A DNA stretch of 64,000 bases from a phage. Both the position numbers and the translations under genes were made by a program. The stretch is from sequence record PZ583742.1. One strand, 5' to 3'. Positions 45,605 through 56,568 of this stretch are shown piece after piece. The notes beneath the pieces were generated by a model. It was not told the DNA's origin, did no database searches, and saw nothing but the letters and a program-made list of their open reading frames with translations. Positions within the stretch are counted from its first letter, which is position 1. Every line of letters begins with the position of its first letter.

Positions 45605-45880
45605 ATGACTAAATTTGAAATCGTTTCTGAAATTGTTACTATAACTTCAATTTTGATTAAAACCGACCGGGAAGATATTACGATGAAGCGTGATGTGTTT
45701 ATCGCGTTTTTGAATGAGTTGGGATTGAGAAATGAGAATGGGAATGAGTTAAACAATGTATCGTTTAACAAGTTGTTTAAAAGTTTATCTGAAGATGAAA
45801 TTGAACAAATCATTGAACAATTTAACGAAGGATTCGAAGATATACACCGTTATCTTATGATGTATACCTCCGGATTCTAA
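45605..45880 (+). CDS. asiA: anti-sigma70 factor AsiA
   Basis: SEIVTITSILIKTDREDI...FIAFLNELG...FNEGFEDIHRYLMMYT matches T4 AsiA. Confidence 0.85.
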   Translation: MTKFEIVSEIVTITSILIKTDREDITMKRDVFIAFLNELGLRNENGNELNNVSFNKLFKSLSEDEIEQIIEQFNEGFEDIHRYLMMYTSGF

Positions 45881-46530
45881 CGTGTACGCCCAAGCGTACG
45901 ACCTGCTTGTCCACACATAGCAGAAAGCCTATCAAAACCAAGGTTAGGTTTTTGCTTATACCAGTACAGTGAGACTGTACCTGCATAAACGTTTTCCAAA
46001 TTAAAGAATGGGCAGCTGAACATATATGAGAAGCTGCTTTTTTTCTTTGTTGGTAAGAATACAGATTCCGTACTGGATTCAAAATAATTACCATTAACCC
46101 CCGCCAAATATTCCGCCGAAGTTTTATCTATTGGAAACCCACCTAAATTTTTTTCGTCGACTGTATCAGGCAATATCCCCTCGTATCCCACCATATCCAC
46201 AAAGTAGTTAAGGTTAGTTGGTCTAAAAGAATATATTGCTGTAAAGTCTGCCCCACTTGACGAGTGGACTATCTGGATTTGCTCGATAGCTGCAATTTTA
46301 AATCTGTTGTCCTGGTCTTGCCTTATCATTTCTGTGTATGAGGCATATGAAGCATCCCTGTACGCATCTAAAAGTGCATCACCTTTATACCAGATTACCG
46401 CCATTAAAAATAATAGAACAATAACTAGTACCCGGGAAAAAACAACTTTCCCGGTCGCATTATCTTTAAAAATTCTATCAAGAAGTCCAAAAAGTAGGTC
46501 GGGTATTGATATTCCTACTTTTGGTTCCAT
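45877..46530 (-). CDS. t: holin T
   Basis: LLDRIFKDNATGKV and FSCPFFNLENVYAGT match T4 holin; 217 aa. Confidence 0.9.
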   Translation of the reverse strand: MEPKVGISIPDLLFGLLDRIFKDNATGKVVFSRVLVIVLLFLMAVIWYKGDALLDAYRDASYASYTEMIRQDQDNRFKIAAIEQIQIVHSSSGADFTAIYSFRPTNLNYFVDMVGYEGILPDTVDEKNLGGFPIDKTSAEYLAGVNGNYFESSTESVFLPTKKKSSFSYMFSCPFFNLENVYAGTVSLYWYKQKPNLGFDRLSAMCGQAGRTLGRTR

Positions 46531-46548
46531 ACTTTTCTCCTTTAAAGA

Positions 46549-46556
46549 TATTTATA
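46549..46556 (-). promoter_or_regulatory. late promoter TATAAATA for t
   Basis: Plus strand reads TATTTATA; about 20 nt upstream of GGAG SD. Confidence 0.5.
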
Positions 46557-46567
46557 GCGCTTATGTA

Positions 46568-47350
46568 CTATAGCCAGGAGCCGTAGATAGTGCCTGTAGC
46601 GCCCCATGAAGGAGAACTTCCGAATACAGCTCGTCCAGCTCCGCCTTGTGAGCCGTATGTAACGCGTCGTCCGTAAGCGCCGCCACCAGCCCCACCCGCG
46701 TCGCCGCCATTACCACCACCCCACTGTCCACCAAAGCTACCACCGCCACCTGGTCCGGTATAACTAGCGTTGCCGCCTGGGTTTACGGCGCCATTAGTAC
46801 CACCTAATCCATATGGTCTACCGCCACCGCCACCAGCTGTACCCGCCACAAGCCAAGAGTTATTTGAAGCACATCCGGCACCGCCGCCGCCCCCTGAAGC
46901 TATAACGCCATAGTTCCAGATACGGAGTCTGCCACCAATGTCGTTTTGAATTACATCACCACCATTTGTACCCGCTACCCAAACACGGGTCCCACCGTTA
47001 CCACCACGGCCCCACATATGGACCCCGCCGTGAATATTCAAAGTAACGTATTCATTAGGGGTATCGCCATACATAAAGAACAACGGAACATCTTTAGTAT
47101 AAGATACTAAATCACCTGTGATATTAAACACAATAGGGGCAGCACCGGCTTCAAAACAACGGTCTCTAAACCATTGCCCGTTAAAGTTATGGTCGGCTCC
47201 AAGTGTGTGAATTATTTCAACAGACCGACCTACCATATTACTCATCCAAAACGGAATACCCATTCTCAATCGTTGGGCAGCGCCGCCCATCCAAGGGTCC
47301 CCAGTTTGTACCCTCGCAGACCACCCTACCCACGGTCCTACTACTGCCAT
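46568..47350 (-). CDS. 38: gp38 receptor-binding adhesin (T2-type, glycine-rich motifs)
   Basis: C-terminal half has poly-Gly blocks separated by short variable segments; GGAGG SD before ATG at 47350. Confidence 0.8.
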
Positions 47351-47361
47351 ATAAACCTCCA

Positions 47362-47377
47362 AGGGGCCGAAGCCCCT
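47362..47377 (-). other. UUCG-tetraloop hairpin between genes 37 and 38
   Basis: Minus-strand RNA AGGGGC-UUCG-GCCCCU just upstream of gene 38 SD. Confidence 0.5.
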
Positions 47378-47381
47378 CTTA

Positions 47382-50300
47382 TTATTTTAACAATGATTTA
47401 ATTAATGCTTTAAGTTCTTCAATCTCTGACTTAAGTTCTGCAATTTCTGCAGTATGCTCATTGATTGCAGCTGTATTTAAACCAATTACACCGTTATAGT
47501 TTAAACGAAGTAAAGCTTCACCATCAGGGTCGCCTTCAACCAATTCAGGTAAAATAGATTGAACTTCTTGAGCAATTAAACCAGCGTTAGGTTCCCATTT
47601 CTGATTACCTTCTTCATCCAGGCCACGTTTCTGCATATAAGTGTAACCGTTAATTTTAGAAAGCTTCTGAGAAGCATTTTCAAATTTAACAAGGTCTTTT
47701 TTAACACGAATATCAGAACGGACATAAACATCTCGAACATATGTAGAATAGCTGTCGTTTGCCTGAACAAGATGACCATAAGACATAATAGCTCTTCCTT
47801 GCTCAGTCCACAAAGCACCATTGGTATCCCAAAGACCTTCATGGATATGATAAGCGCTAGACCAAGATGCAATATGCATACCATTGGCAACCATATTGAT
47901 TCGGCCGTCACCACCATGAACTAATCCTGTATCATTATCACCAATAACAAGACACGGGCCGGTCCATACAGGGTCACCACCACCAGCTGATAATCTTGCT
48001 CCAGTTTTAACCATGTTAGGAACATACAGAACTCCATTGTGGTGGAATTCATAGATAGCTTGTGGGTCAGAACCGTTTTCCTGGTTACCTACACGAATAA
48101 TACCTTGCGCCCAGTTATTAGTGATACGACGCATACCGAAATCTACACCTGATATGAATCCTTCGTTAGTAATACCAGATTTTCCTTTGATAATCGGATA
48201 ATAACTATCATTACCAACATTACCAAAATCAACAAATACCGGTGCTTCTTGCTTCCATTGGTTTCCCCAATCGCCGGCCTGGTGGGATGCCCAGACAGAG
48301 CCATTAATAAAAAGACGGTCCCTATTAAAATTAAAAGTGGCTGAACCTTGTGGGTTTAAAGCAATATCGCCGTCTGCATTAATATTTACGCCTGAATTAG
48401 TTTGAAAACTATAAATTGATACAGCATTATCGGCACCGCCGTTACCTACATACCAGTTATCAATACCAGCTTTTTGTCCTTTCATATAACCAGATTCGGT
48501 TGCAGCACTGTTAATAACAATAGCATCCGAGTTTGCATTAAGAGTTAAACGCCCGGTCATTGTGTCACCACTTTTACCGACACGAGTATTCACTGCTGCA
48601 TCAAGGTTAGTAGCACCGCTATACTTTTTCCAAATAGAACCTGCAATATTACCATCGGTATTCATATAAGCTGTACCGGCATATAAGCGGTTCTGAGCCA
48701 TGAAGTTACCTTCTTTGGTAAAGCGCCAATATTTTAATCCTGTAGCATCACCATCACCAAGCAAATCGCCTTGAGCAACAATTCGGTATTCGCTTGTAGC
48801 GCGGTCCATACCTTGAGTAATAGTTACATTAGAAACTGTATTTTTCTGCTTGGTAATTGGATAGAATGCTTGGGTTGCTGCACCAAGTGTTTGATACAAC
48901 GGAGCTTTAGTCGTATTCTGGTTGGCATAAGATGCACCATTACCAGCAGGGAATTCTAATACGCTGTTAGCAATAAAAGAAACTTGGTCAGCCGCTAAAT
49001 TAGGGATTTTAACTTGACCAGTGTCTAACGTAATACTTAATGGGCGTAATGGGCCTAATCCGCCACTTTCGCCGGCATTAACATTGGTCGGGATAATATG
49101 CAGCTGGTCTTCCGAATTTCGAAAAATAACACCGTACTTATCGTTCCAAATACGAAGACCACTAGCAGCGCGAACTTTAATTTCATTGGAAACATACAGA
49201 TTGCGTTTTAAGGATGTATCTTGATTGACAGTCAATCCTTCAATTACATTCATGGTACCATTTAAATAGGATTCGACTTTACCTGCTGTAGTTCGTTGAA
49301 TATAATGCATCCAGCCGGTAGCATCAGATGTTTCCATTACGTTTTTACGAGAACCATCTACCGTATTAAAAGTGTCACCCCAAACTTTGAGCTCTATATT
49401 ATCAACTGAACTACTTCCTGTTGTATTTCCTTTAAAAAGCACTGTCGAAGCATTACTGAGACCATCAATATTAACCGAACCACCACGGACTTCAACGTTA
49501 CCAGGAGTAACCAACAACCCACCATCGGTGTTAACGTTTGTTACACCTTTGCCACGAAAATAATGGTGATATTTGCCACTTTGGTGATATCCTAAAAGAG
49601 TTTGACCGTCACCGAAGCCGTTTTTATCATTAGTAGTATTAACAATAACTAATGGATAGTTTTGGGTTGTAGGGAGAATTAAATCAGAACCGTTGGTTGA
49701 ATAACCCGCAACTAACTGTTTAAGGCTTGTAACTTCAGTCGGAGTTGTAAGTAAAGTATAAGCTCCATTATTAACTATATGGAACTGGCCGTCTTGTCTC
49801 CATTTCAAACCTGTGTTATTGTCGCCAAGTGCGATAGCAGACGGACCTAATGTTGAGTATCCTGAGCTATCCCCAGGTAGGCCAACGGAAAGAGAATTTG
49901 ATGTTTTGACATCTCCATCTGCATTAAATGACCAAAGATACTTAGCTGTTCCGGCTGTAGAAATAGAATGCCATGAAATACCATTTACATTATTAAGTTC
50001 ACGATACCTAATTCCATCGACAGCGTGTCTACTTATTCTAAGATAGTTAATAGCTGTTGCACTTGAACTTGCAGGATTATTATTTGCCAATGAAGATATA
50101 TCATAATCAAGAGCTGATTTATTACCGGTATCAACGGTATTAGTATAAATTACCGGAGATTTTATTGATGTTCCACCGGAAATAGATGGAGCATAAAATA
50201 AACCGTCGCCGTTGAATGCAAAAATATTAGATGTTGAATTAGTATAATCCTGGACACGAACGTTCAAGATTTGCTTGGTATCCCCAGTACGGTTTTGAGA

Positions 50301-50711
50301 ATAAATTATACCTCTTTCGCGAGCATCAGCCAAATCCTGGAATCGAACATGAGTGGTTCCTGTACCTCGTACAAGAACTTCACCGTTATCTGTCATTAAA
50401 CGGGCTTTTGCAGTAATATCACCATTTGCTGTTATATTACCAGTAGTAGTAAAATGTCCAGACGTTTGTGAAATATCTCCGGCTATAGTATAGGCGCCGG
50501 TTTGATTGTAATTTCCTTTATGAATAACGTTACCGTCAATATTACCACCTTTAGCAAAGCCAAGGTCGATGATGGCGCCGGTGTCATCTTTAGTAAAAAG
50601 TAAGCGGTCTTTCAGGTTGATAGCCAGTTCACCTTCAGCAAGAACTGTTGGCGCCGGACGAACGCCGGCAACCTTACTTCTTTTAAATTGTATTTGTTTT
50701 AAAGTAGCCAT
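47382..50711 (-). CDS. 37: long tail fibre distal subunit gp37 with C-terminal autoproteolytic chaperone domain
   Basis: N-terminus [13 protein letters not shown] as T4 gp37; C-terminal SDIRVKKDL...[15 protein letters not shown] plus coiled coil. Confidence 0.9.
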
Positions 50712-50719
50712 AATGCCTC

Positions 50720-51367
50720 TTAATAATATCCAAAATCTTGTACGGAGTCTTTAAGAACGATTTGGTCAAAACGGGGCACGTGAGCCGGGTCTGATGCTGG
50801 GTTCCTAGAGAAGAAATTAGGTGCTGACAAGTTACCTGTCATTGTTTGCAATGTACTATTATTTAGTTCCACCTGTTGCTGGTTAGTTACATTACCAAGA
50901 CCAACTTGAGCTTTTGACGGAGTATTCCCTGGAGAAAATACACGCCCTGTTTCATCATAAATCTGTCGAGCTAACGTATCACCCATAACAATAAGACGTT
51001 TTACTCCCGTCGTAGTGTCAGGGTCAAAAATAACGAATGGTGTTCCCGTTTCAGTCTCAAATCCAAACGGCCCTTTAATACGGAAAGATGCAGTAAATGG
51101 TGCACCACCTGTTCTCGCTCCCAACTTAATCCCGTAACCATTTGAATCGTTAAATGTCAGGCCTTGTTCGAAATATACGTTTGCTTTATAATTACCACCA
51201 AGAGCTTTAGAAACGAAATCGTTATCGACTGCTTGTGGCTTGTTATATTCGGAATAAATTTTATAAGTTTTGAAATATAAGTCATTACTGACTGGTGTTA
51301 ATGGGAAATTACCCTGGTGCCAGAGGACCGAACCTCCGGCTGTTGAGCCTAGTTTTAAATCTGCCAT
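50720..51367 (-). CDS. 36: long tail fibre distal connector gp36
   Basis: 215 aa; position between 35 and 37. Confidence 0.85.
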   Translation of the reverse strand: MADLKLGSTAGGSVLWHQGNFPLTPVSNDLYFKTYKIYSEYNKPQAVDNDFVSKALGGNYKANVYFEQGLTFNDSNGYGIKLGARTGGAPFTASFRIKGPFGFETETGTPFVIFDPDTTTGVKRLIVMGDTLARQIYDETGRVFSPGNTPSKAQVGLGNVTNQQQVELNNSTLQTMTGNLSAPNFFSRNPASDPAHVPRFDQIVLKDSVQDFGYY

Positions 51368-51402: not shown

Positions 51403-51410
51403 TATTTATA
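51403..51410 (-). promoter_or_regulatory. late promoter TATAAATA for gene 36
   Basis: Plus strand reads TATTTATA, about 36 nt upstream of the gene 36 start. Confidence 0.5.
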
Positions 51411-51418
51411 ACGAAAAA

Positions 51419-51436
51419 AGGACTCCGAAGAGTCCT
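51419..51436 (-). terminator. intrinsic terminator after gene 35
   Basis: AGGACTC-loop-GAGTCCT with T run downstream on the minus strand; overlaps gene 35 stop. Confidence 0.5.
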
Positions 51437-52565
51437 ATTGTTTTTCTCGTAGTTCGGCTGCGTATATCTTGCCGGCTCTCGGAGCTTGTGCATCTGGTAA
51501 TGTTACAATTGTATTGCCTGTATTTGTTGCATCGTTTGCATATGACATCCTTATGCCGTTGACACCAAATTCAGCTGGTTTGAATGCCGAGTCACCTCTG
51601 GTTATCTCACCAATAACAATATTACGTATTGACCCAGTTCCCACAGCTACAGTCCTTGATGTTACTACTGTAAAGCCATCGGCTCCCGCTGGAATCTCAA
51701 CATATCTTTCGAAACTTACCCATGCACCAGCTGGAACGTTTGCTGCAATATCGATGTTTGTATTTGATATCGGAGAAGTGCTAGGACTTTTAAAGAATCG
51801 AACCGAAGTCCTTACAGTCCCGGCGGCTTTCAGTTCAGCGTCAAATGACATCTGAAACTTCAGGTAAAGCACATCCAAAGGTAAAAGGTTATATGTGCTC
51901 ATAGGAGTCACCAGGTCCTCTGTGGGGAACCTTCTAATTGAGGTTGATGTTCCATCACCTGTTGATGAATACGTGCTCTCGTCTTCCGTTATGCGCACAG
52001 GATAGCCTGTTGCTCCTATATCACTAAAGGTATCATAAACGACTTCAAGCGGAGTCGAAACATCCTCAACTAACTTCCCGTCATTATACTTAACATGCTC
52101 CGAAACAATTACGTTCCGGCCGGTTATGTAAAAAGCCGAGTACGATGTATCAACTTTATCAATCAGCCATTTCTCGGGGAATGCTCTTGAGCCACATTTA
52201 CGAAGCCAGTCAATTAATGTTTGCGAGGCATTTAGTTTCCCAGAAGAAATAAAAGCAATCAATCTTCCAGCTGGAACAGATTCCACAAAGGTGATTAATG
52301 CCTGACTGATTACATCATGTGTGCTGGTCAATGAATAGTTTTTCGTGTTAACAATTTTATTCGTAGTTGTATCAATTTCTAATAGAGTCAAACCATTGCC
52401 AAAAGTAGTTGGTCCGATTTGTTCATCCTGAAATTTGATATACGATTTCACCGTGGAAAGAGTACAGCTCCCTGCTATACTCATTTTAAATTTAACGGCA
52501 TTATTTTCTGATATAACTGGCGTTTGGACGTATCCTTGTCCAAACTCTGCCATAAATTTTTCCAT
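51435..52565 (-). CDS. 35: long tail fibre proximal connector (hinge) gp35
   Basis: 376 aa; position between 34 and 36. Confidence 0.85.
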   Translation of the reverse strand: MEKFMAEFGQGYVQTPVISENNAVKFKMSIAGSCTLSTVKSYIKFQDEQIGPTTFGNGLTLLEIDTTTNKIVNTKNYSLTSTHDVISQALITFVESVPAGRLIAFISSGKLNASQTLIDWLRKCGSRAFPEKWLIDKVDTSYSAFYITGRNVIVSEHVKYNDGKLVEDVSTPLEVVYDTFSDIGATGYPVRITEDESTYSSTGDGTSTSIRRFPTEDLVTPMSTYNLLPLDVLYLKFQMSFDAELKAAGTVRTSVRFFKSPSTSPISNTNIDIAANVPAGAWVSFERYVEIPAGADGFTVVTSRTVAVGTGSIRNIVIGEITRGDSAFKPAEFGVNGIRMSYANDATNTGNTIVTLPDAQAPRAGKIYAAELREKQ

Positions 52566-52573
52566 ATTACCTC

Positions 52574-55500
52574 TTATTCAACCCATTCAAACTTAACGGA
52601 TTTAGTGGTCGGGTCTGGGATGATGCGCACGTTACCGATACGCAACCAATCGAGAATGGTTAAGTTCCCCATTGTTGTGTTGTCGGCCGGTAATGCACCA
52701 ACATCCTCTGCAGACGGAGGGTTATCCGCGGTGTAAACCATTGCAAAAGTCGTCCATGCAGATTTATTTTTCTGCCATGTACGAGTATAACGAATAGTAC
52801 CACCGTTCAATCCAGTTGGATAACACACCCAATCCTGATAACATGAATCCAATGTATTACCAAACTGAGTTAACGTACCAGGGTATTTAACTTCCTTATC
52901 ACGAACCGAATAGTCAAACCAGGTTCCGCGCAGTTTTTGGCCAGAGCTACCTAATACTTCATCACCGAGTGTACCATCGTCATTACGATAACGAATAACA
53001 GGCGAGGCGAAAGTTCCATTTTCAGTTAACCAACCAGAAGCATTCCAAACTTCATCAGTTACCCCAGCAGGTTTAGTTTGAACTGTATCAATGTTTACCT
53101 GACGTTTTAACTTCATTGTCCAATAACCAGGGAACTGACTATAAGTCGGTTCATCATTGATATCGACAGACCAGAAGCCAACAGTATCTGCAGTCGGAGC
53201 TTGTGCGATAAGACTTGGTTTCGTACCGAATACACGGACCGGAGCATTCACATGGAGCACACCAGACATTGTATCACCGCCTTGGTTAACAAAGTTTCTA
53301 TCTACAATCTCAACAGCGTTTTTCTCGGTCAGGACTTTAAATGCACCGCCACCATTTGCTATGATATTACCAGCATCAAGAGTTTTAAGCACTAAATTCT
53401 GCGAGTTATCACCCAGAGCCAGAGTTGCACCAGAAGCTTCACCCGTTGTGGTTGCGATAGTACGACCATTTAGAACGTAATTATTTTTGGCTTGAACATC
53501 ATTTCCGGCGCTAAGGTTGTTCAGTACAGCAGCATTACCCGAGGCGGTGTTTAATGTCAATACGTTAGTCGTATCGCCAATAGTCATTGTCGTTCCGGTG
53601 GAAGGAGCGGTGATTTTCCACTTGTTAGTTCCGTTAACAACGTTCACAGTTCCGAACGTCGAAGTGCCAGCCGTTACATCAGTAAACACTGCAGTGCTCG
53701 TCGATACAACCGGAGCAGATATATTTGTCTGTTTGGTAAGAGTTAACACACCTTCAACAGTCTGAGCAATATCACGACGAATAAACTGGGTCGAATCAAG
53801 GTTATCCAGTTTTTCAGCATTAACAGCCATCGCATTTATCGGTAGGAAGTTTTGCAATACGCGGTTTAATTCGTAAGGTGAAACTGCATATCCAGATTTT
53901 GCGTAGCTAACCAGTTTACTTGGGTCCGGAGTATACACGCCATTTGCATATGTAAATCCTGCACCAGTCGTTGTAGTTGCGGCCGAAGTAGCTGTACCAG
54001 AAGATAAACGAACAAATCCACGTAGGGTTTCAGATGCTTCCCAGGTTGTTTCCGTTTGTGCAATATATTTCAGCGCTGACGGACTGATGGCCAAGACTTT
54101 TGATGTACCTGCTGTTGCTTCTGCGTTTGTCGCGATGCGAACAATACCTTCGGCATTTTCAGTGGCTTTTTTCGACATCAATTTAAGCGGGGTAACGATT
54201 GTTTTATCGTCAGTGCCGGTATTGACTTCACCCTGAGTTGCTAATCTTGCCGTACCACGCTGAGTCTCATTTGCTTCAAGAATATTCAGGCTATAATGGT
54301 CCCAGAGCGTCCCTGTTTCTACTAAACCACTTAATGCATTAACAGAAGTACGAGCAGTATTATTAAATCTATTTTTAATTTTTAATGGAGTTGAGATACG
54401 AGTATCATCAGTTCCAGTATCAAATTCTGATTGCGTAGCAATCTCGGCTATGCCGGTTAACGTTTCTGATGCTTTACGGTCATTTAACGTTTTAGGAGTC
54501 ACAGCTCTGGTATAATCGGTTCCTGCATCTGTTTCCACTTGAGTTGCAATCTCGATTAAACCGATACGGGAATCAAGAGCAGTTTTGCGATGTAACATTT
54601 CTGGAGTAACGACTGCGTTTGCCCATCCAGATTGAGAAGTACCAGCAATTACTTCACTTTCAACCGCAAGAATAACCGCACCTTGTTGGGTGTAAGTAGC
54701 TTTGTACTGGTCAAGAGCTTTCGGAGAAACAACCAGATTAACCGTATTTTTATTATAAACGTTTGTACCATTTAATTCACGCGAAGCAGCAGGAGTTGCA
54801 CCGGTTGTTGAAACGTAAGTTACAATACCAGATAGCGATTCTGAGCCCTGGCGCGCTTGTAGTTTCTTCGGAGTGATAATTGTGGTATCATCTACACCTG
54901 CATCGGTTTCTTGCTGTGTGGCGAGTTCTGCGAGCCCACGTCTCGTTTCTGTTGCCGTACGTTCATTGAGTTTTTTCGGAGAAATAATTACATCATCAAC
55001 AAATGCAAAATCGCTGTTCTGATTTACTTGAGCAGTCGTTGCGATTCTGGCAATACCTCGTTGGTTCTCTTTAGCAACACGGTTGGCCAAAGTCTGAGGG
55101 GTAATTGCAAGTTCTTTCTCTGGGTTATTTTCATGGTCAACGTTTGCCTGAGTCTGGTTTGCCAGAGCAATAACACCAAGACGTGCGCGCGTGGAATCAT
55201 TTAATGAGTCAACTCGTTCGACAGTCGGGACGTTCTGAGCGACAACCCAATAACTTGTTCCAGACACTGTATCTTCTGCATATGATAATTCAATAACCGG
55301 AGTATAACTGATGTTGCCATTAAAGGTCAATGAATCAACCAACACCCAAGTTGTATCTGGTGGATACTCGGAACGTTTAGGGAATTGCAGCAATTTAATG
55401 TCAGATGCAATCTTATCGCCAACAGCAGCTCTTATATTAACAGTCTGCGATTTACGGAGATAGTTCAATGCAATTTTAACAATGTCACCTTGTAAAACAT

Positions 55501-56530
55501 CAGTCGGTAAATCGATATTAATCGTTGCCGGAGTTGAGTTATCTTCGCCAAATACAATGACGCTTTCGTTTGGTAAAAGTTTAACGCTGTCACGAATAAC
55601 GCGCAGACGAGTTTTAAAATCACCGTCCCAAACATGCCAGAGTTTTTCGGCAGCATCATAAACGAAGAAACCATCACCTGTGGTACGGAATTCCATTTGA
55701 TGCTGACCAGCTTTATCAAGACTGGAACTAGTGTCAAAGGTTTCAACCATCAGGTGGAACGTTGGTCCCATACCATCGATATCAACAGATTTGACAATAT
55801 CACCCTGGTTTGCATACTTAGGAAGAATGAAAGTAATCGGTGCACCAGTTGTATAACGACGCATAATAAAGTCGCCAGCTTGTGCATGGAAACGTCCGGT
55901 CGACGGTTCTACTCTGATACCACGTTCTTCGTTACCTGCTTCCCAAAATTGCCATAAGCGGTTTGAAAAGATAAGCATGTTATAAGAGAATGGTTTGGTA
56001 ATTAAAACTTCTGAATACTGATTACCAAAGCGAACAATCTTTTGGTTACCTTGACCAGGCACATTGCTCGATTGAACTTTAATTTCATTATAACCGGTAT
56101 TACCGCCGATATCTTTAATAACGATGGTATCACCATCAGTCGGGTTCGGAGGCAATGTAAATGTGGTAAAGCTTGCAGCTGAGTCGACTGCGATAAATTC
56201 CCCGGAGCTAAGCTGACGAGTTGGAGATGCAACAGTTTCCCATTTAGGGTCAGTACGAGTTGCTAACCAATACTGAGGGGTAAATGCTCCAGCTGGTGCC
56301 GGAATATCACGTTGAGCAACCCAAATACGGTTATCATTAATAACCGCAAAGTTCTTTTTGTATCCGCGCGTCGCATCATATTGTTGAATTGTGTTTTCTT
56401 CTATAAAGAAACCTACGTTAACGCCGTCTGATAAAACTGAGTAATCAGCTTTTGCGACATTAATGACTTTCTCACCAGCAGCATCGAGACCGGATGTTGC
56501 TCTGAATGCTGGTTTTAAAATATCGGCCAT
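52574..56530 (-). CDS. 34: long tail fibre proximal subunit gp34
   Basis: 1318 aa; start of the late fibre block. Confidence 0.9.
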   Translation of the reverse strand: MADILKPAFRATSGLDAAGEKVINVAKADYSVLSDGVNVGFFIEENTIQQYDATRGYKKNFAVINDNRIWVAQRDIPAPAGAFTPQYWLATRTDPKWETVASPTRQLSSGEFIAVDSAASFTTFTLPPNPTDGDTIVIKDIGGNTGYNEIKVQSSNVPGQGNQKIVRFGNQYSEVLITKPFSYNMLIFSNRLWQFWEAGNEERGIRVEPSTGRFHAQAGDFIMRRYTTGAPITFILPKYANQGDIVKSVDIDGMGPTFHLMVETFDTSSSLDKAGQHQMEFRTTGDGFFVYDAAEKLWHVWDGDFKTRLRVIRDSVKLLPNESVIVFGEDNSTPATINIDLPTDVLQGDIVKIALNYLRKSQTVNIRAAVGDKIASDIKLLQFPKRSEYPPDTTWVLVDSLTFNGNISYTPVIELSYAEDTVSGTSYWVVAQNVPTVERVDSLNDSTRARLGVIALANQTQANVDHENNPEKELAITPQTLANRVAKENQRGIARIATTAQVNQNSDFAFVDDVIISPKKLNERTATETRRGLAELATQQETDAGVDDTTIITPKKLQARQGSESLSGIVTYVSTTGATPAASRELNGTNVYNKNTVNLVVSPKALDQYKATYTQQGAVILAVESEVIAGTSQSGWANAVVTPEMLHRKTALDSRIGLIEIATQVETDAGTDYTRAVTPKTLNDRKASETLTGIAEIATQSEFDTGTDDTRISTPLKIKNRFNNTARTSVNALSGLVETGTLWDHYSLNILEANETQRGTARLATQGEVNTGTDDKTIVTPLKLMSKKATENAEGIVRIATNAEATAGTSKVLAISPSALKYIAQTETTWEASETLRGFVRLSSGTATSAATTTTGAGFTYANGVYTPDPSKLVSYAKSGYAVSPYELNRVLQNFLPINAMAVNAEKLDNLDSTQFIRRDIAQTVEGVLTLTKQTNISAPVVSTSTAVFTDVTAGTSTFGTVNVVNGTNKWKITAPSTGTTMTIGDTTNVLTLNTASGNAAVLNNLSAGNDVQAKNNYVLNGRTIATTTGEASGATLALGDNSQNLVLKTLDAGNIIANGGGAFKVLTEKNAVEIVDRNFVNQGGDTMSGVLHVNAPVRVFGTKPSLIAQAPTADTVGFWSVDINDEPTYSQFPGYWTMKLKRQVNIDTVQTKPAGVTDEVWNASGWLTENGTFASPVIRYRNDDGTLGDEVLGSSGQKLRGTWFDYSVRDKEVKYPGTLTQFGNTLDSCYQDWVCYPTGLNGGTIRYTRTWQKNKSAWTTFAMVYTADNPPSAEDVGALPADNTTMGNLTILDWLRIGNVRIIPDPTTKSVKFEWVE

Positions 56531-56560: not shown

Positions 56561-56568
56561 TATTTATA
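56561..56568 (-). promoter_or_regulatory. late promoter TATAAATA for gene 34
   Basis: Plus strand reads TATTTATA, about 31 nt upstream of gene 34 ATG. Confidence 0.55.

Follow-up and report, generated by a model that had tools for sequence, protein, structure and literature searches.

A predicted T2/S16-type long-tail-fibre tip, with self-cleaving gp37 and a gp38 adhesin, in a Gaprivervirus-like T-even phage

Genes 37 and 38 of this phage raise the question of which protein forms the far end of the long tail fibre and what decides the host protein that it binds. Our preferred answer, to which we give a probability of roughly 0.93, is a tip of the T2/S16 type: a self-cleaving gp37 capped by a gp38 adhesin with receptor-binding loops, and we see nothing in the sequence that speaks against it.

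Layout and transcription of the locus

The window (the whole stretch of DNA analysed, 64,000 nt) belongs to a Gaprivervirus-like T-even phage with 93–98% nucleotide identity to vB_EcoM_RZ, DK-13 and MN01. The fibre genes have the order g34-g35-g36-g37-g38-t, with g38 lying between g37 (stop at 47382) and the holin gene t (46530-45877), all on the minus strand. The segment singled out by an earlier, sequence-only reading, 46568-47730, comprises the whole of gp38 and the last 116 codons of gp37. The features of the locus are:

51403..51410, minus strand: T4-type late promoter motif TATAAATA, upstream of g36
47382..50711, minus strand: gene 37, distal long-tail-fibre subunit, 1109 aa, PHROG 1699
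47362..47377, minus strand: hairpin with a UUCG tetraloop (AGGGGC-UUCG-GCCCCU), downstream of the g37 stop and ahead of the g38 ribosome-binding site
46568..47350, minus strand: gene 38, tail-fibre adhesin, 260 aa, start ATG 47350, stop TAG 46570-46568

Late promoter motifs were found at this locus only before g34, g36 and t; none separates g36 from g38, and the following motif (46549-46556, minus strand) precedes the holin gene t. The motif TATAAATA is likely the start of a g36-g37-g38 late transcript, and genes 36, 37 and 38 would be co-transcribed late in infection. The hairpin between g37 and g38 is the core of the minimum-free-energy fold (-17.8 kcal/mol, z = -2.2). A terminator was considered, but the coding strand lacks a T-run and no promoter motif serves g38 alone, so that the hairpin is more likely an intercistronic stabilising element. 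Scans of the whole 64,000-nt window returned neither tRNA genes nor Rfam families, and other-frame ORFs at 46561-46749 (minus strand) and 47174-47401 (plus strand) were taken as by-products of the GC-rich glycine-codon sequence.

The automatic gene call started g38 at TTG 47362 (264 aa). This codon is inside the hairpin and upstream of the Shine-Dalgarno sequence GGAGG (47356-47360), has no ribosome-binding site, and was rejected; since, furthermore, the gp38 homologues all start with MAV.G, the true start is ATG 47350, which gives 260 aa, the length that had been estimated at about 260.

The locus is a mosaic of an RZ-like shaft and a P8-like adhesin. PHROG 1699 ('long tail fiber protein distal subunit') matches gp37 over its full length (E = 0), and the protein has 99–100% amino acid identity to gp37 of vB_EcoM_RZ except in residues 901-1000 (91%). 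The window departs from RZ starting at about 47918, in the gp37 tip, and its gp38 is 98.8% identical on the amino acid level to that of vB_YenM_P8.

The gp38 adhesin and receptor choice

A Pfam scan of gp38 returned only GP38 (PF05268; 1.1e-79, 267.7 bits, cut-off 25, profile positions 1-218 of 218) and Gp38_N (PF21721; 9e-20, 70.8 bits, cut-off 25, positions 1-40 of 40); the chaperone family of T4 gp38 was absent from it. PHROG 2056 ('tail fiber protein; host specificity') matched with 1.4e-102, and among the PDB sequences gp38 of PP01 (receptor-binding domain, 9V85, 3e-74) and of S16 (6F45_D, 6e-47 over residues 1-260) were found. The protein could be aligned with gp38 of T2, T6, RB69, RB51 and the FL phages, with T2 and T6 from end to end, so the T2/T6 type proposed by the sequence-only reading was borne out. 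Single-sequence AlphaFold2 prediction failed (mean pLDDT 30.9) and, therefore, the fold assignment rests on homology to solved structures: a three-layer polyglycine-II sandwich is predicted solely from the matches to 6F45_D and 9V85. Three regions were distinguished:

47231..47350, minus strand: gp38 residues 1-40, N-terminal attachment domain (Pfam Gp38_N), predicted to dock on the gp37 tip
47009..47230, minus strand: gp38 residues 41-114, conserved beta-helix core, aligning with the same domain in 6F45_D and 9V85
46631..47008, minus strand: gp38 residues 115-240, specificity domain of glycine-rich motifs (predicted polyglycine-II sandwich) and hypervariable segments

In the attachment domain W7, W20 and W35 were invariant in alignments of 13 and 25 sequences and aligned with W7/W20/W36 of S16, where the structure has the three tryptophans as prongs inserted into pockets of gp37 (PMC6851490). 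This domain comes in two types among the relatives, GPWVG and (I/V)PGWIG, and in the window and its relatives the type of the gp37 tip co-varies with it. Residues 41-114 had the lowest entropy of the protein (mean 0.45 bits, 25 distinct sequences).

The division of the third region into glycine-rich motifs and hypervariable segments follows PMC3157838 and PMC12032242, and the variable segments are approximately residues 121-129, 158-172, 182-200, 205-210 and 225-238. Glycine makes up 36% of residues 110-260 compared to 13% of residues 1-109. Runs of GG to GGGGG are present at 116-120, 130-131, 139-140, 153-157, 173-177, 183-184, 192-193, 201-204, 207-208, 211-216, 219-224 and 236-237; two of them, GGGGG at 153-157 and at 173-177, have aligned counterparts in S16, T2 and T6. 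Poly-glycine blocks separated by variable segments had been described from the letters of the window, and this pattern is now a measured property, because column entropy in residues 115-260 was lower at glycine (0.60 bits) than at non-glycine positions (1.32 bits; 25 distinct sequences). In the JS98-type group, whose members are nearly identical, residues 115-260 hold 17 of the 20 columns that vary beyond residue 44. The DNA of the specificity domain has a GC content of 0.546, compared to ~0.39 in its surroundings, on account of the GGN codons. Among the relatives compared, V168 (E in six relatives, A in PhAPEC2 and RZ) and R229 (S or N elsewhere) were found only in the window; both are located in variable segments, and the charge-changing replacements E168V and S/N229R may be host-range adaptations.

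That the variable segments of gp38 set receptor choice was found with T6/RB32 and T6/PST chimeras (PMC3157838), by a CM8xEV240 gp38 swap and by the single replacement Q206L in RB51, which switches OmpF to OmpW (bioRxiv 10.64898/2026.04.02.716166); PMC12032242 is a further source for experiments of this kind in relatives, and loops were assigned in the structure of PP01 gp38 (PMC12892980). A C-terminal amber mutant of T6 gp38 with morphologically normal fibres is reported to have lost adsorption (PMC3157838). The receptors assigned to gp38 adhesins are Tsx, OmpA, OmpF and OmpC (PMC12032242) as well as FadL and OmpW (bioRxiv 10.64898/2026.04.02.716166). The loop set of the window is of the JS98 type, which occurs at 96–99% identity in phages of Gaprivervirus and Dhakavirus and, more diverged, in one Mosigvirus phage. 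In the papers searched, leaving aside PMC12946066 on gp38 of phage vB_EcoM_SD286, none was found that names a receptor for a JS98-type gp38 or for Gaprivervirus or Dhakavirus phages, and the vB_YenM_P8 paper calls the use of OmpF 'not clear'. OmpF is our best guess, and a weak one, since in the gp38 family a single replacement is able to change the porin used; nor can the receptor be transferred with confidence from RB51 or FL31, because all variable segments differ. That the JS98-type loop set recognises an outer-membrane receptor other than Tsx, OmpA, OmpF, OmpC, FadL or OmpW is unlikely.

The sequence-only reading had predicted that host range is set by the gp38 loops. This holds for the primary porin receptor, on the strength of the swaps and mutations in relatives, but is a simplification for host range overall, to which gp12, the short tail fibre, contributes together with the LPS core. 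Shielding by O-antigen and intracellular defences play a part as well. It is conceivable, though we consider it rather doubtful, that gp38 is an adhesin but that host range is determined mainly by such other factors (gp12 acting with the LPS core, shielding by O-antigen, or defence systems), so that the gp38 loops would predict the porin and not the host range. In line with this, vB_YenM_P8, which has the 98.8% identical gp38, was isolated on Yersinia enterocolitica and the other close relatives on E. coli; according to the legend of Fig. 3 in PMC12032242, phages sharing an identical Gp38 infected the ECOR collection in different patterns; and gp12 alleles independently set a second receptor (bioRxiv 10.64898/2026.04.02.716166). 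However, such a role of other factors qualifies the T2/S16-type tip rather than replacing it, since in all swaps cited the primary receptor maps to the variable segments of gp38.

The C-terminal domain of gp37 and the predicted tip

The end of gp37 that gp38 would have to meet is made up of two parts:

47718..47954, minus strand: gp37 residues ~920-998, distal tip, aligning with residues 27-93 of 6F45_A
47385..47717, minus strand: gp37 residues 999-1109 (111 residues), intramolecular chaperone/Peptidase_S74 (Pfam PF13884, 6F45_A)

The Pfam profile Peptidase_S74 (PF13884) matched residues 999-1058 from profile position 1 (5e-12, 46.3 bits, cut-off 22). Of the two stretches quoted by the sequence-only reading, SDIRVKKDL begins exactly at residue 999 and the second corresponds to residues 1047-1058. 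The chain 6F45_A, which is the tip plus chaperone of S16 gp37, was found with 4e-42 over residues 920-1109 and with 3e-32 when residues 999-1109 were used alone; the latter query also gave weak matches to the self-processing domain of MYRF (7DC3) and the tail fibre 8JOV. The motif S-D-x-R-x-K was invariant in nine gp37 proteins (window, YenP8, MN01, RZ, JS98, RB69, T2, T6 and S16). The putative catalytic codons are S999 at 47717-47715 and K1004 at 47702-47700, which we take to be a Ser/Lys dyad with the lysine five residues downstream of the scissile-bond serine, as in the endosialidase work and MEROPS family S74. These findings agree with the earlier view that gp37 ends in an S74-like chaperone domain. 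In a comparison of full-length gp37 with all PDB sequences, 6F45_A was the only match at E <= 0.01 and the needle tip of T4 gp37 was unmatched; at this threshold, the assertion that a T4-type tip is missing stands as well. The Pfam family gp37_trimer gave a weak match below threshold.

In the window the sequence DVYVR^SDIRVKK aligns with DLNVS^SDRRIKK, the autocleavage site of S16 as quoted in PMC7917993, and self-cleavage of gp37 between R998 and S999 is predicted by this analogy. According to that paper, which cites the S16 structure work, autocleavage of S16 gp37 follows trimerisation and exposes the docking surface; residues ~920-998 would become the corresponding surface for gp38 in the window. 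Proteolytic cleavage has also been reported for gp37 of T2 and T6 (PMC3157838).

Taken with the relatives as a guide, the tip would be built as follows. Trimerisation of gp37 would be aided by its own C-terminal chaperone, residues 999-1109; in the folded trimer Ser999 and Lys1004 would cleave the R998-S999 bond, releasing the 111-residue chaperone and exposing a flat trimeric tip that ends in ...DVYVR. A single gp38 monomer, the stoichiometry being that of relatives, would then dock via W7, W20 and W35 and stay in the virion as it does there. Its glycine-rich motifs are expected to stack into a rigid polyglycine-II sandwich, from which the hypervariable loops would project at the distal end of the fibre; there, again by analogy, they would bind a host outer-membrane protein, the reversible step with which adsorption starts. 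The loop sequences, in the window those of the JS98-type set, would determine which host protein gp38 binds.

An S74-like domain that is inactive or degenerate and stays in the mature fibre, with gp38 binding elsewhere or not at all, appears very improbable. Membership in the Pfam family is by itself no proof of catalysis, but S-x4-K and the surroundings of the scissile bond are invariant in nine gp37 proteins that are otherwise 10–60% identical, and the motif coincides exactly with the S16 site whose autocleavage, according to PMC7917993, exposes the docking surface; the cleavage of T2 and T6 gp37 (PMC3157838) argues in the same direction. Even less credible is a gp38 that acts solely as assembly chaperone as in T4, with gp37 itself recognising the receptor: many GenBank relatives, JS98, RB69, IME281 and PhAPEC2 among them, have gp38 annotated as 'distal long tail fiber assembly catalyst', and T2-type gp38 is said to assist gp37 assembly before it remains attached (PMC7917993), but this label is a T4 name that was transferred (in the RB69 record itself, the unrelated T2-subfamily 'gp38' is noted as the adhesin), the only families matched were the adhesin families PF05268 and PF21721, the full-length homologues in S16 and PP01 are located at the fibre tip in crystals (PMC6851490; PMC12892980), and gp37 has, by sequence, no T4-type tip and ends in a predicted removable chaperone domain.

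The T2/S16-type tip module of the window is already known, being a well-described T2/T6-like type with near-identical copies in public phage genomes, and as the textbook counterpart of the T4-type tip it carries little weight as a discovery. Its use is in annotation: GenBank labels in several close relatives are 'hypothetical protein', 'tail protein and peptidase' or the catalyst label above, while the right name for the g38 product is tail-fibre adhesin, and the annotation of gp37 should include a (predicted) self-cleaving C-terminal chaperone domain. For phage therapy or host-range engineering, gp38 residues 115-260 are the segment to swap or mutate.

Comparison with known fibre tips

The closest gp38 proteins are those of the JS98-type group, comprising JS98 (Dhakavirus), vB_YenM_P8, MN01, TH44 and EAWsc9 (Gaprivervirus) and PhAPEC2 (Mosigvirus), in which all five variable segments are of the same type as in the window. 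Over residues 115-260 JS98, MN01 and vB_YenM_P8 are 96.6–98.6% identical to it, whereas PhAPEC2 is more diverged (85.5% overall; 14 of 146 columns differ in 115-260). JS98, TH40 and PhAPEC2 carry the same specificity domain on the (I/V)PGWIG attachment type (81% identity), matched to a different gp37 tip.

The nearest specificity domains characterised by experiment are those of the OmpF binders RB51 and FL31 (and of RB69-like gp38), with 69% identity over residues 115-260; their attachment domain is of the same type as in the window (91–95%). The equivalent of RB51 Q206, the OmpF/OmpW switch, is kept in the window as Q209, but every variable segment differs at several positions, for example SFGGQW versus YTSQF, and further differing segments include TRVWVAG and VSLQNSWAPNAT. 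To the Tsx, OmpA, T2 and S16 types, residues 115-260 of the window are 44–49% identical.

T2 and T6 have the architecture, gene order, glycine-rich motifs, C-terminal GxIYG and gp37 SDIR.K in common with the window. Identity in gp38 residues 1-114 and 115-260 is 40% and 49% for T2, and 74% and 46% for T6. Both loop sets differ from that of the window, T6-like phages using Tsx and the T2 loop set FadL/OmpF, and the gp37 shafts are largely unrelated (9–58% per 100-aa block).

The S16 gp37(3)-gp38 tip complex (6F45) has the same two-gene arrangement. In gp38, both phages have the three docking tryptophans, the beta-helix and glycine-rich motifs, and the alignment over residues 920-1109 of gp37 takes in the cleavage motif and the whole chaperone domain. 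Identity between the gp38 proteins is only ~45% in both domains and loop sequences differ throughout, S16 binding OmpC of Salmonella, and the gp37 tip of the window has a 12-residue insertion just before the docking region.

Genes 37 and 38 occupy the same genomic place in T4 as in the window, and a trimeric fibre shaft is, in general terms, common to both. Unlike the window, however, T4 has a gp38 of an unrelated protein family (the gp38/gp57A chaperones), and its gp37 ends in a receptor-binding needle where that of the window ends in a predicted removable S74 domain. Among T-even phages, the T2/S16-type tip is the commoner of the two (PMC6851490).

Organisation of the tail-fibre locus

The interval 46568-47730, in which a sequence-only reading had placed a T2-type gp38 adhesin and a self-cleaving gp37 C-terminus, comprises gene 38, encoding the tail-fibre adhesin gp38, and the final 116 codons of gene 37, encoding the distal long-tail-fibre subunit gp37. 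The locus has the following features:

56561-56568, minus strand, T4 late-promoter motif TATAAATA just upstream of the ORF taken as gene 34
52574-56530, minus strand, ORF of 1318 aa, taken as gene 34 by size and position upstream of gene 35
51435-52565, minus strand, gene 35
51419-51436, minus strand, G+C-rich hairpin AGGACUC-UUCG-GAGUCCU, overlapping the gene 35 stop codon (51437-51435) and extending just beyond
51403-51410, minus strand, TATAAATA just upstream of gene 36
50720-51367, minus strand, gene 36
47382-50711, minus strand, gene 37 (1109 aa)
47362-47377, minus strand, stable hairpin AGGGGC-UUCG-GCCCCU between the gene 37 stop and the gene 38 ribosome-binding site
46568-47350, minus strand, gene 38 (260 aa, ATG at 47350)
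46549-46556, minus strand, TATAAATA just upstream of t
45877-46530, minus strand, holin gene t

The DNA reads TAA (47384-47382) as the gene 37 stop, a second TAA directly after it, the hairpin (47377-47362), GGAGG (47360-47356) and, beyond a five-base spacer, ATG 47350. Because GGAGG precedes this ATG and every gp38 homologue aligned has the N-terminus MAV.G, the start of the automatic ORF call (TTG 47362, 264 aa) was rejected and gene 38 was set to 46568-47350; the resulting 260 aa agree with the length of about 260 aa estimated before.

A scan of the window revealed no TATAAATA upstream of genes 35, 37 or 38. Since the motif precedes gene 36 and is missing before gene 38, genes 36, 37 and 38 are probably read as one late transcript, and the layout suggests that g34-g35, g36-g37-g38 and t are each transcribed late as a unit; the seven copies in the window are not above the chance mean of 4.9, and it is the positions alone that are suggestive. 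A T-run comes directly after the hairpin at 51419-51436, giving it the look of a terminator. Both hairpins are G+C-rich and intercistronic, and they resemble the highly stable C(UUCG)G hairpins originally described from T4 intercistronic regions. Residues 57-128 of the fibre hinge gp35 (52182-52397, minus strand) matched, unexpectedly, the eukaryote-named Pfam domain ILEI (PF15711, interleukin-like EMT inducer/FAM3; 1.4e-06, 29.1 bits, curated cut-off 27). Neither tRNA genes (ARAGORN) nor Rfam families at gathering threshold were found in this T-even genome segment (1-64000).

The gp37 chaperone domain and the gp38 adhesin

gp37 matched PHROG 1699 over its full length. The strings quoted in the sequence-only reading, SDIRVKKDL and a second one of 12 letters, are residues 999-1007 and 1047-1058. 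Residues 999-1058 matched Pfam Peptidase_S74 ("chaperone of endosialidase") from profile position 1 (5e-12) and residues 920-1109 the tip and chaperone of S16 gp37 (PDB 6F45, chain A; 4e-42), which supports the proposed S74-like C-terminus. The last 115 residues on their own still matched 6F45_A (3e-32) and, weakly, 7DC3 (myelin regulatory factor self-processing domain) and 8JOV (another phage fibre). Since the PDB sequence search gave no match to a tip structure of T4 gp37, the tip is, as had been supposed, not of the T4 type by sequence; gp37 has every defining feature of the S74 chaperone family that can be tested on sequence and lacks those of a T4-type tip.

The gp37 shaft is only 9-58% identical to those of T2 and T6; S-D-x-R-x-K is invariant across nine aligned gp37 C-termini. 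DVYVR^SDIRVKK of the window aligns exactly with the S16 cleavage site DLNVS^SDRRIKK (PMC7917993), and cleavage is also reported for gp37 of T2 and T6 (PMC3157838). The alignment predicts a cut between R998 and S999 that would free 111 residues. The Ser/Lys dyad was defined on the endosialidase chaperone domain, and gp37 cleavage was reportedly demonstrated for T2 by Drexler and colleagues in the 1980s.

gp38 matched Pfam GP38 (1.1e-79) and Gp38_N (9e-20), PHROG 2056 ("tail fiber protein; host specificity") and, among all PDB sequences, 9V85 (PP01 gp38 receptor-binding domain, 3e-74) and 6F45_D (full-length S16 gp38, 6e-47, residues 1-260 against 1-249). Judged from sequence, every testable defining feature of the gp38 adhesin family is present. 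In the S16 structure, the gp37 trimer is capped by a single gp38 monomer, three Trp at the tips of N-terminal helices fit into gp37 pockets, and a polyglycine-II sandwich of three layers is built from ten glycine-rich motifs, with the hypervariable segments as its distal loops (PMC6851490). W7, W20 and W35 of the window gp38 align with the docking Trp and are invariant across all sequences compared. A single-sequence AlphaFold2 model of gp38 was of too low confidence for use (pLDDT 30.9).

The present analysis demonstrates the order of the genes, the families to which the proteins belong, the conservation of catalytic and docking residues and loop-confined variability. By analogy to S16, T2, T6 and PP01, gp37 would fold with its own chaperone domain and then cut it off, one gp38 would cap the processed gp37, and the gp38 loops would bind a porin reversibly.

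Glycine blocks, variable segments and receptor choice

Glycine makes up 26% of gp38, 36% in residues 110-260 versus 13% in residues 1-109, with runs of GG to GGGGG scattered across the C-terminal half. The GGN codons of the gp38 specificity domain fully explain the GC content of 0.546 at 46500-46999 (genome about 0.39), and they account for the strongly negative GC skew and for short DNA repeats of the CCACCGCCACC type. ORFs at 46561-46749 (minus strand) and 47174-47401 (plus strand) were rejected as spurious by-products of this composition.

Column entropy was calculated from an alignment of 25 distinct gp38 proteins (T2, T6, S16, RB69, RB51, JS98, receptor-assigned FL and AV phages, close relatives and IMG/VR contigs). 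Its mean was 0.75 bits for residues 1-40, 0.45 for 41-114 and 1.05 for 115-260; in the latter, Gly positions had 0.60 and non-Gly positions 1.32 bits, which confirms the noted pattern of poly-glycine blocks with short variable segments between them. Variability was highest at about 121-129, 158-172, 182-200, 205-210 and 225-238.

Work on related phages supports receptor choice by the loops. It includes T6/PST recombinants and chimeras that narrowed specificity to the 400-bp segment with the four variable segments (PMC3157838), and Tsx, OmpA or OmpF use has been predicted from adhesin phylogeny (PMC12032242). A gp38 swap starting at the second variable segment replaced Tsx by OmpA as the receptor, and the Q206L substitution alone replaced OmpF by OmpW (bioRxiv 10.64898/2026.04.02.716166). 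Residues 115-260 of the window gp38 are 96.6-98.6% identical to JS98, MN01 and vB_YenM_P8, 69% to the OmpF binders RB51 and FL31 and 44-49% to the Tsx, OmpA, T2 and S16 types; the suggested comparison with T2 and T6 is contained in the alignment, T2 falling into the last group. Our literature search revealed no paper giving a receptor for the JS98-type subtype, and the authors of vB_YenM_P8 leave OmpF use open (PMC11269248). OmpF is our best guess, since it is bound by the closest relatives that have been characterised, Q209 of the window gp38 conserves the RB51 switch residue Q206, and OmpF serves the T-even phages of Yersinia (PMC7917993). As one residue can be enough to change the porin, this guess is a weak one.

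Relatives and mosaicism

The 25 kb around the locus are 92-96% identical to TH55, DK-13, MN01, vB_YenM_P8 and UPEC07, which are classified in, or close to, Gaprivervirus. The g36-g37-g38 locus itself is mosaic. Only 0-2 bases per 150 separate the window from vB_EcoM_RZ between 51217 and about 47918, a stretch with most of gene 36 and the gp37 codons up to about 930, and the window departs from RZ thereafter; gene 38 is nearest to Yersinia phage vB_YenM_P8 (1-6 differences per 150 nt, 98.8% aa identity), and the part between them, which encodes the gp37 tip and chaperone, is a perfect match to neither phage. Recombination-like breakpoints are apparent at about 47918 and about 47320 (g37/g38, minus strand).

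The gp38 gene of the closest relative, vB_EcoM_RZ (GenBank MW598459), spans the start of the circular record (L006 4001-4632 plus L013 1-127); as deposited, its 252-aa product is out of frame past about residue 211 relative to all other gp38s (KRYIRLRSRARGI...), probably because a G-rich run was misread or misassembled, possibly because of a real defect.

Past residue 44, members of the JS98-type group vary at only 20 columns, 17 of them in residues 115-260. Among the relatives compared, V168 (E in six relatives, A in PhAPEC2 and RZ) and R229 (S or N in relatives) are unique to the window, and both lie inside variable segments.

JS98, TH40 and PhAPEC2 have the same specificity domain as the window, but their N-terminal attachment type is (I/V)PGWIG instead of GPWVG and is paired with a different, shorter gp37 tip. 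This is an instance of the modular shuffling known for the gp38 family (PMC3157838). Near-identical genes are in public records, crystal structures have been solved, and the genetics of the system goes back decades; the earlier finding is correct but already known.
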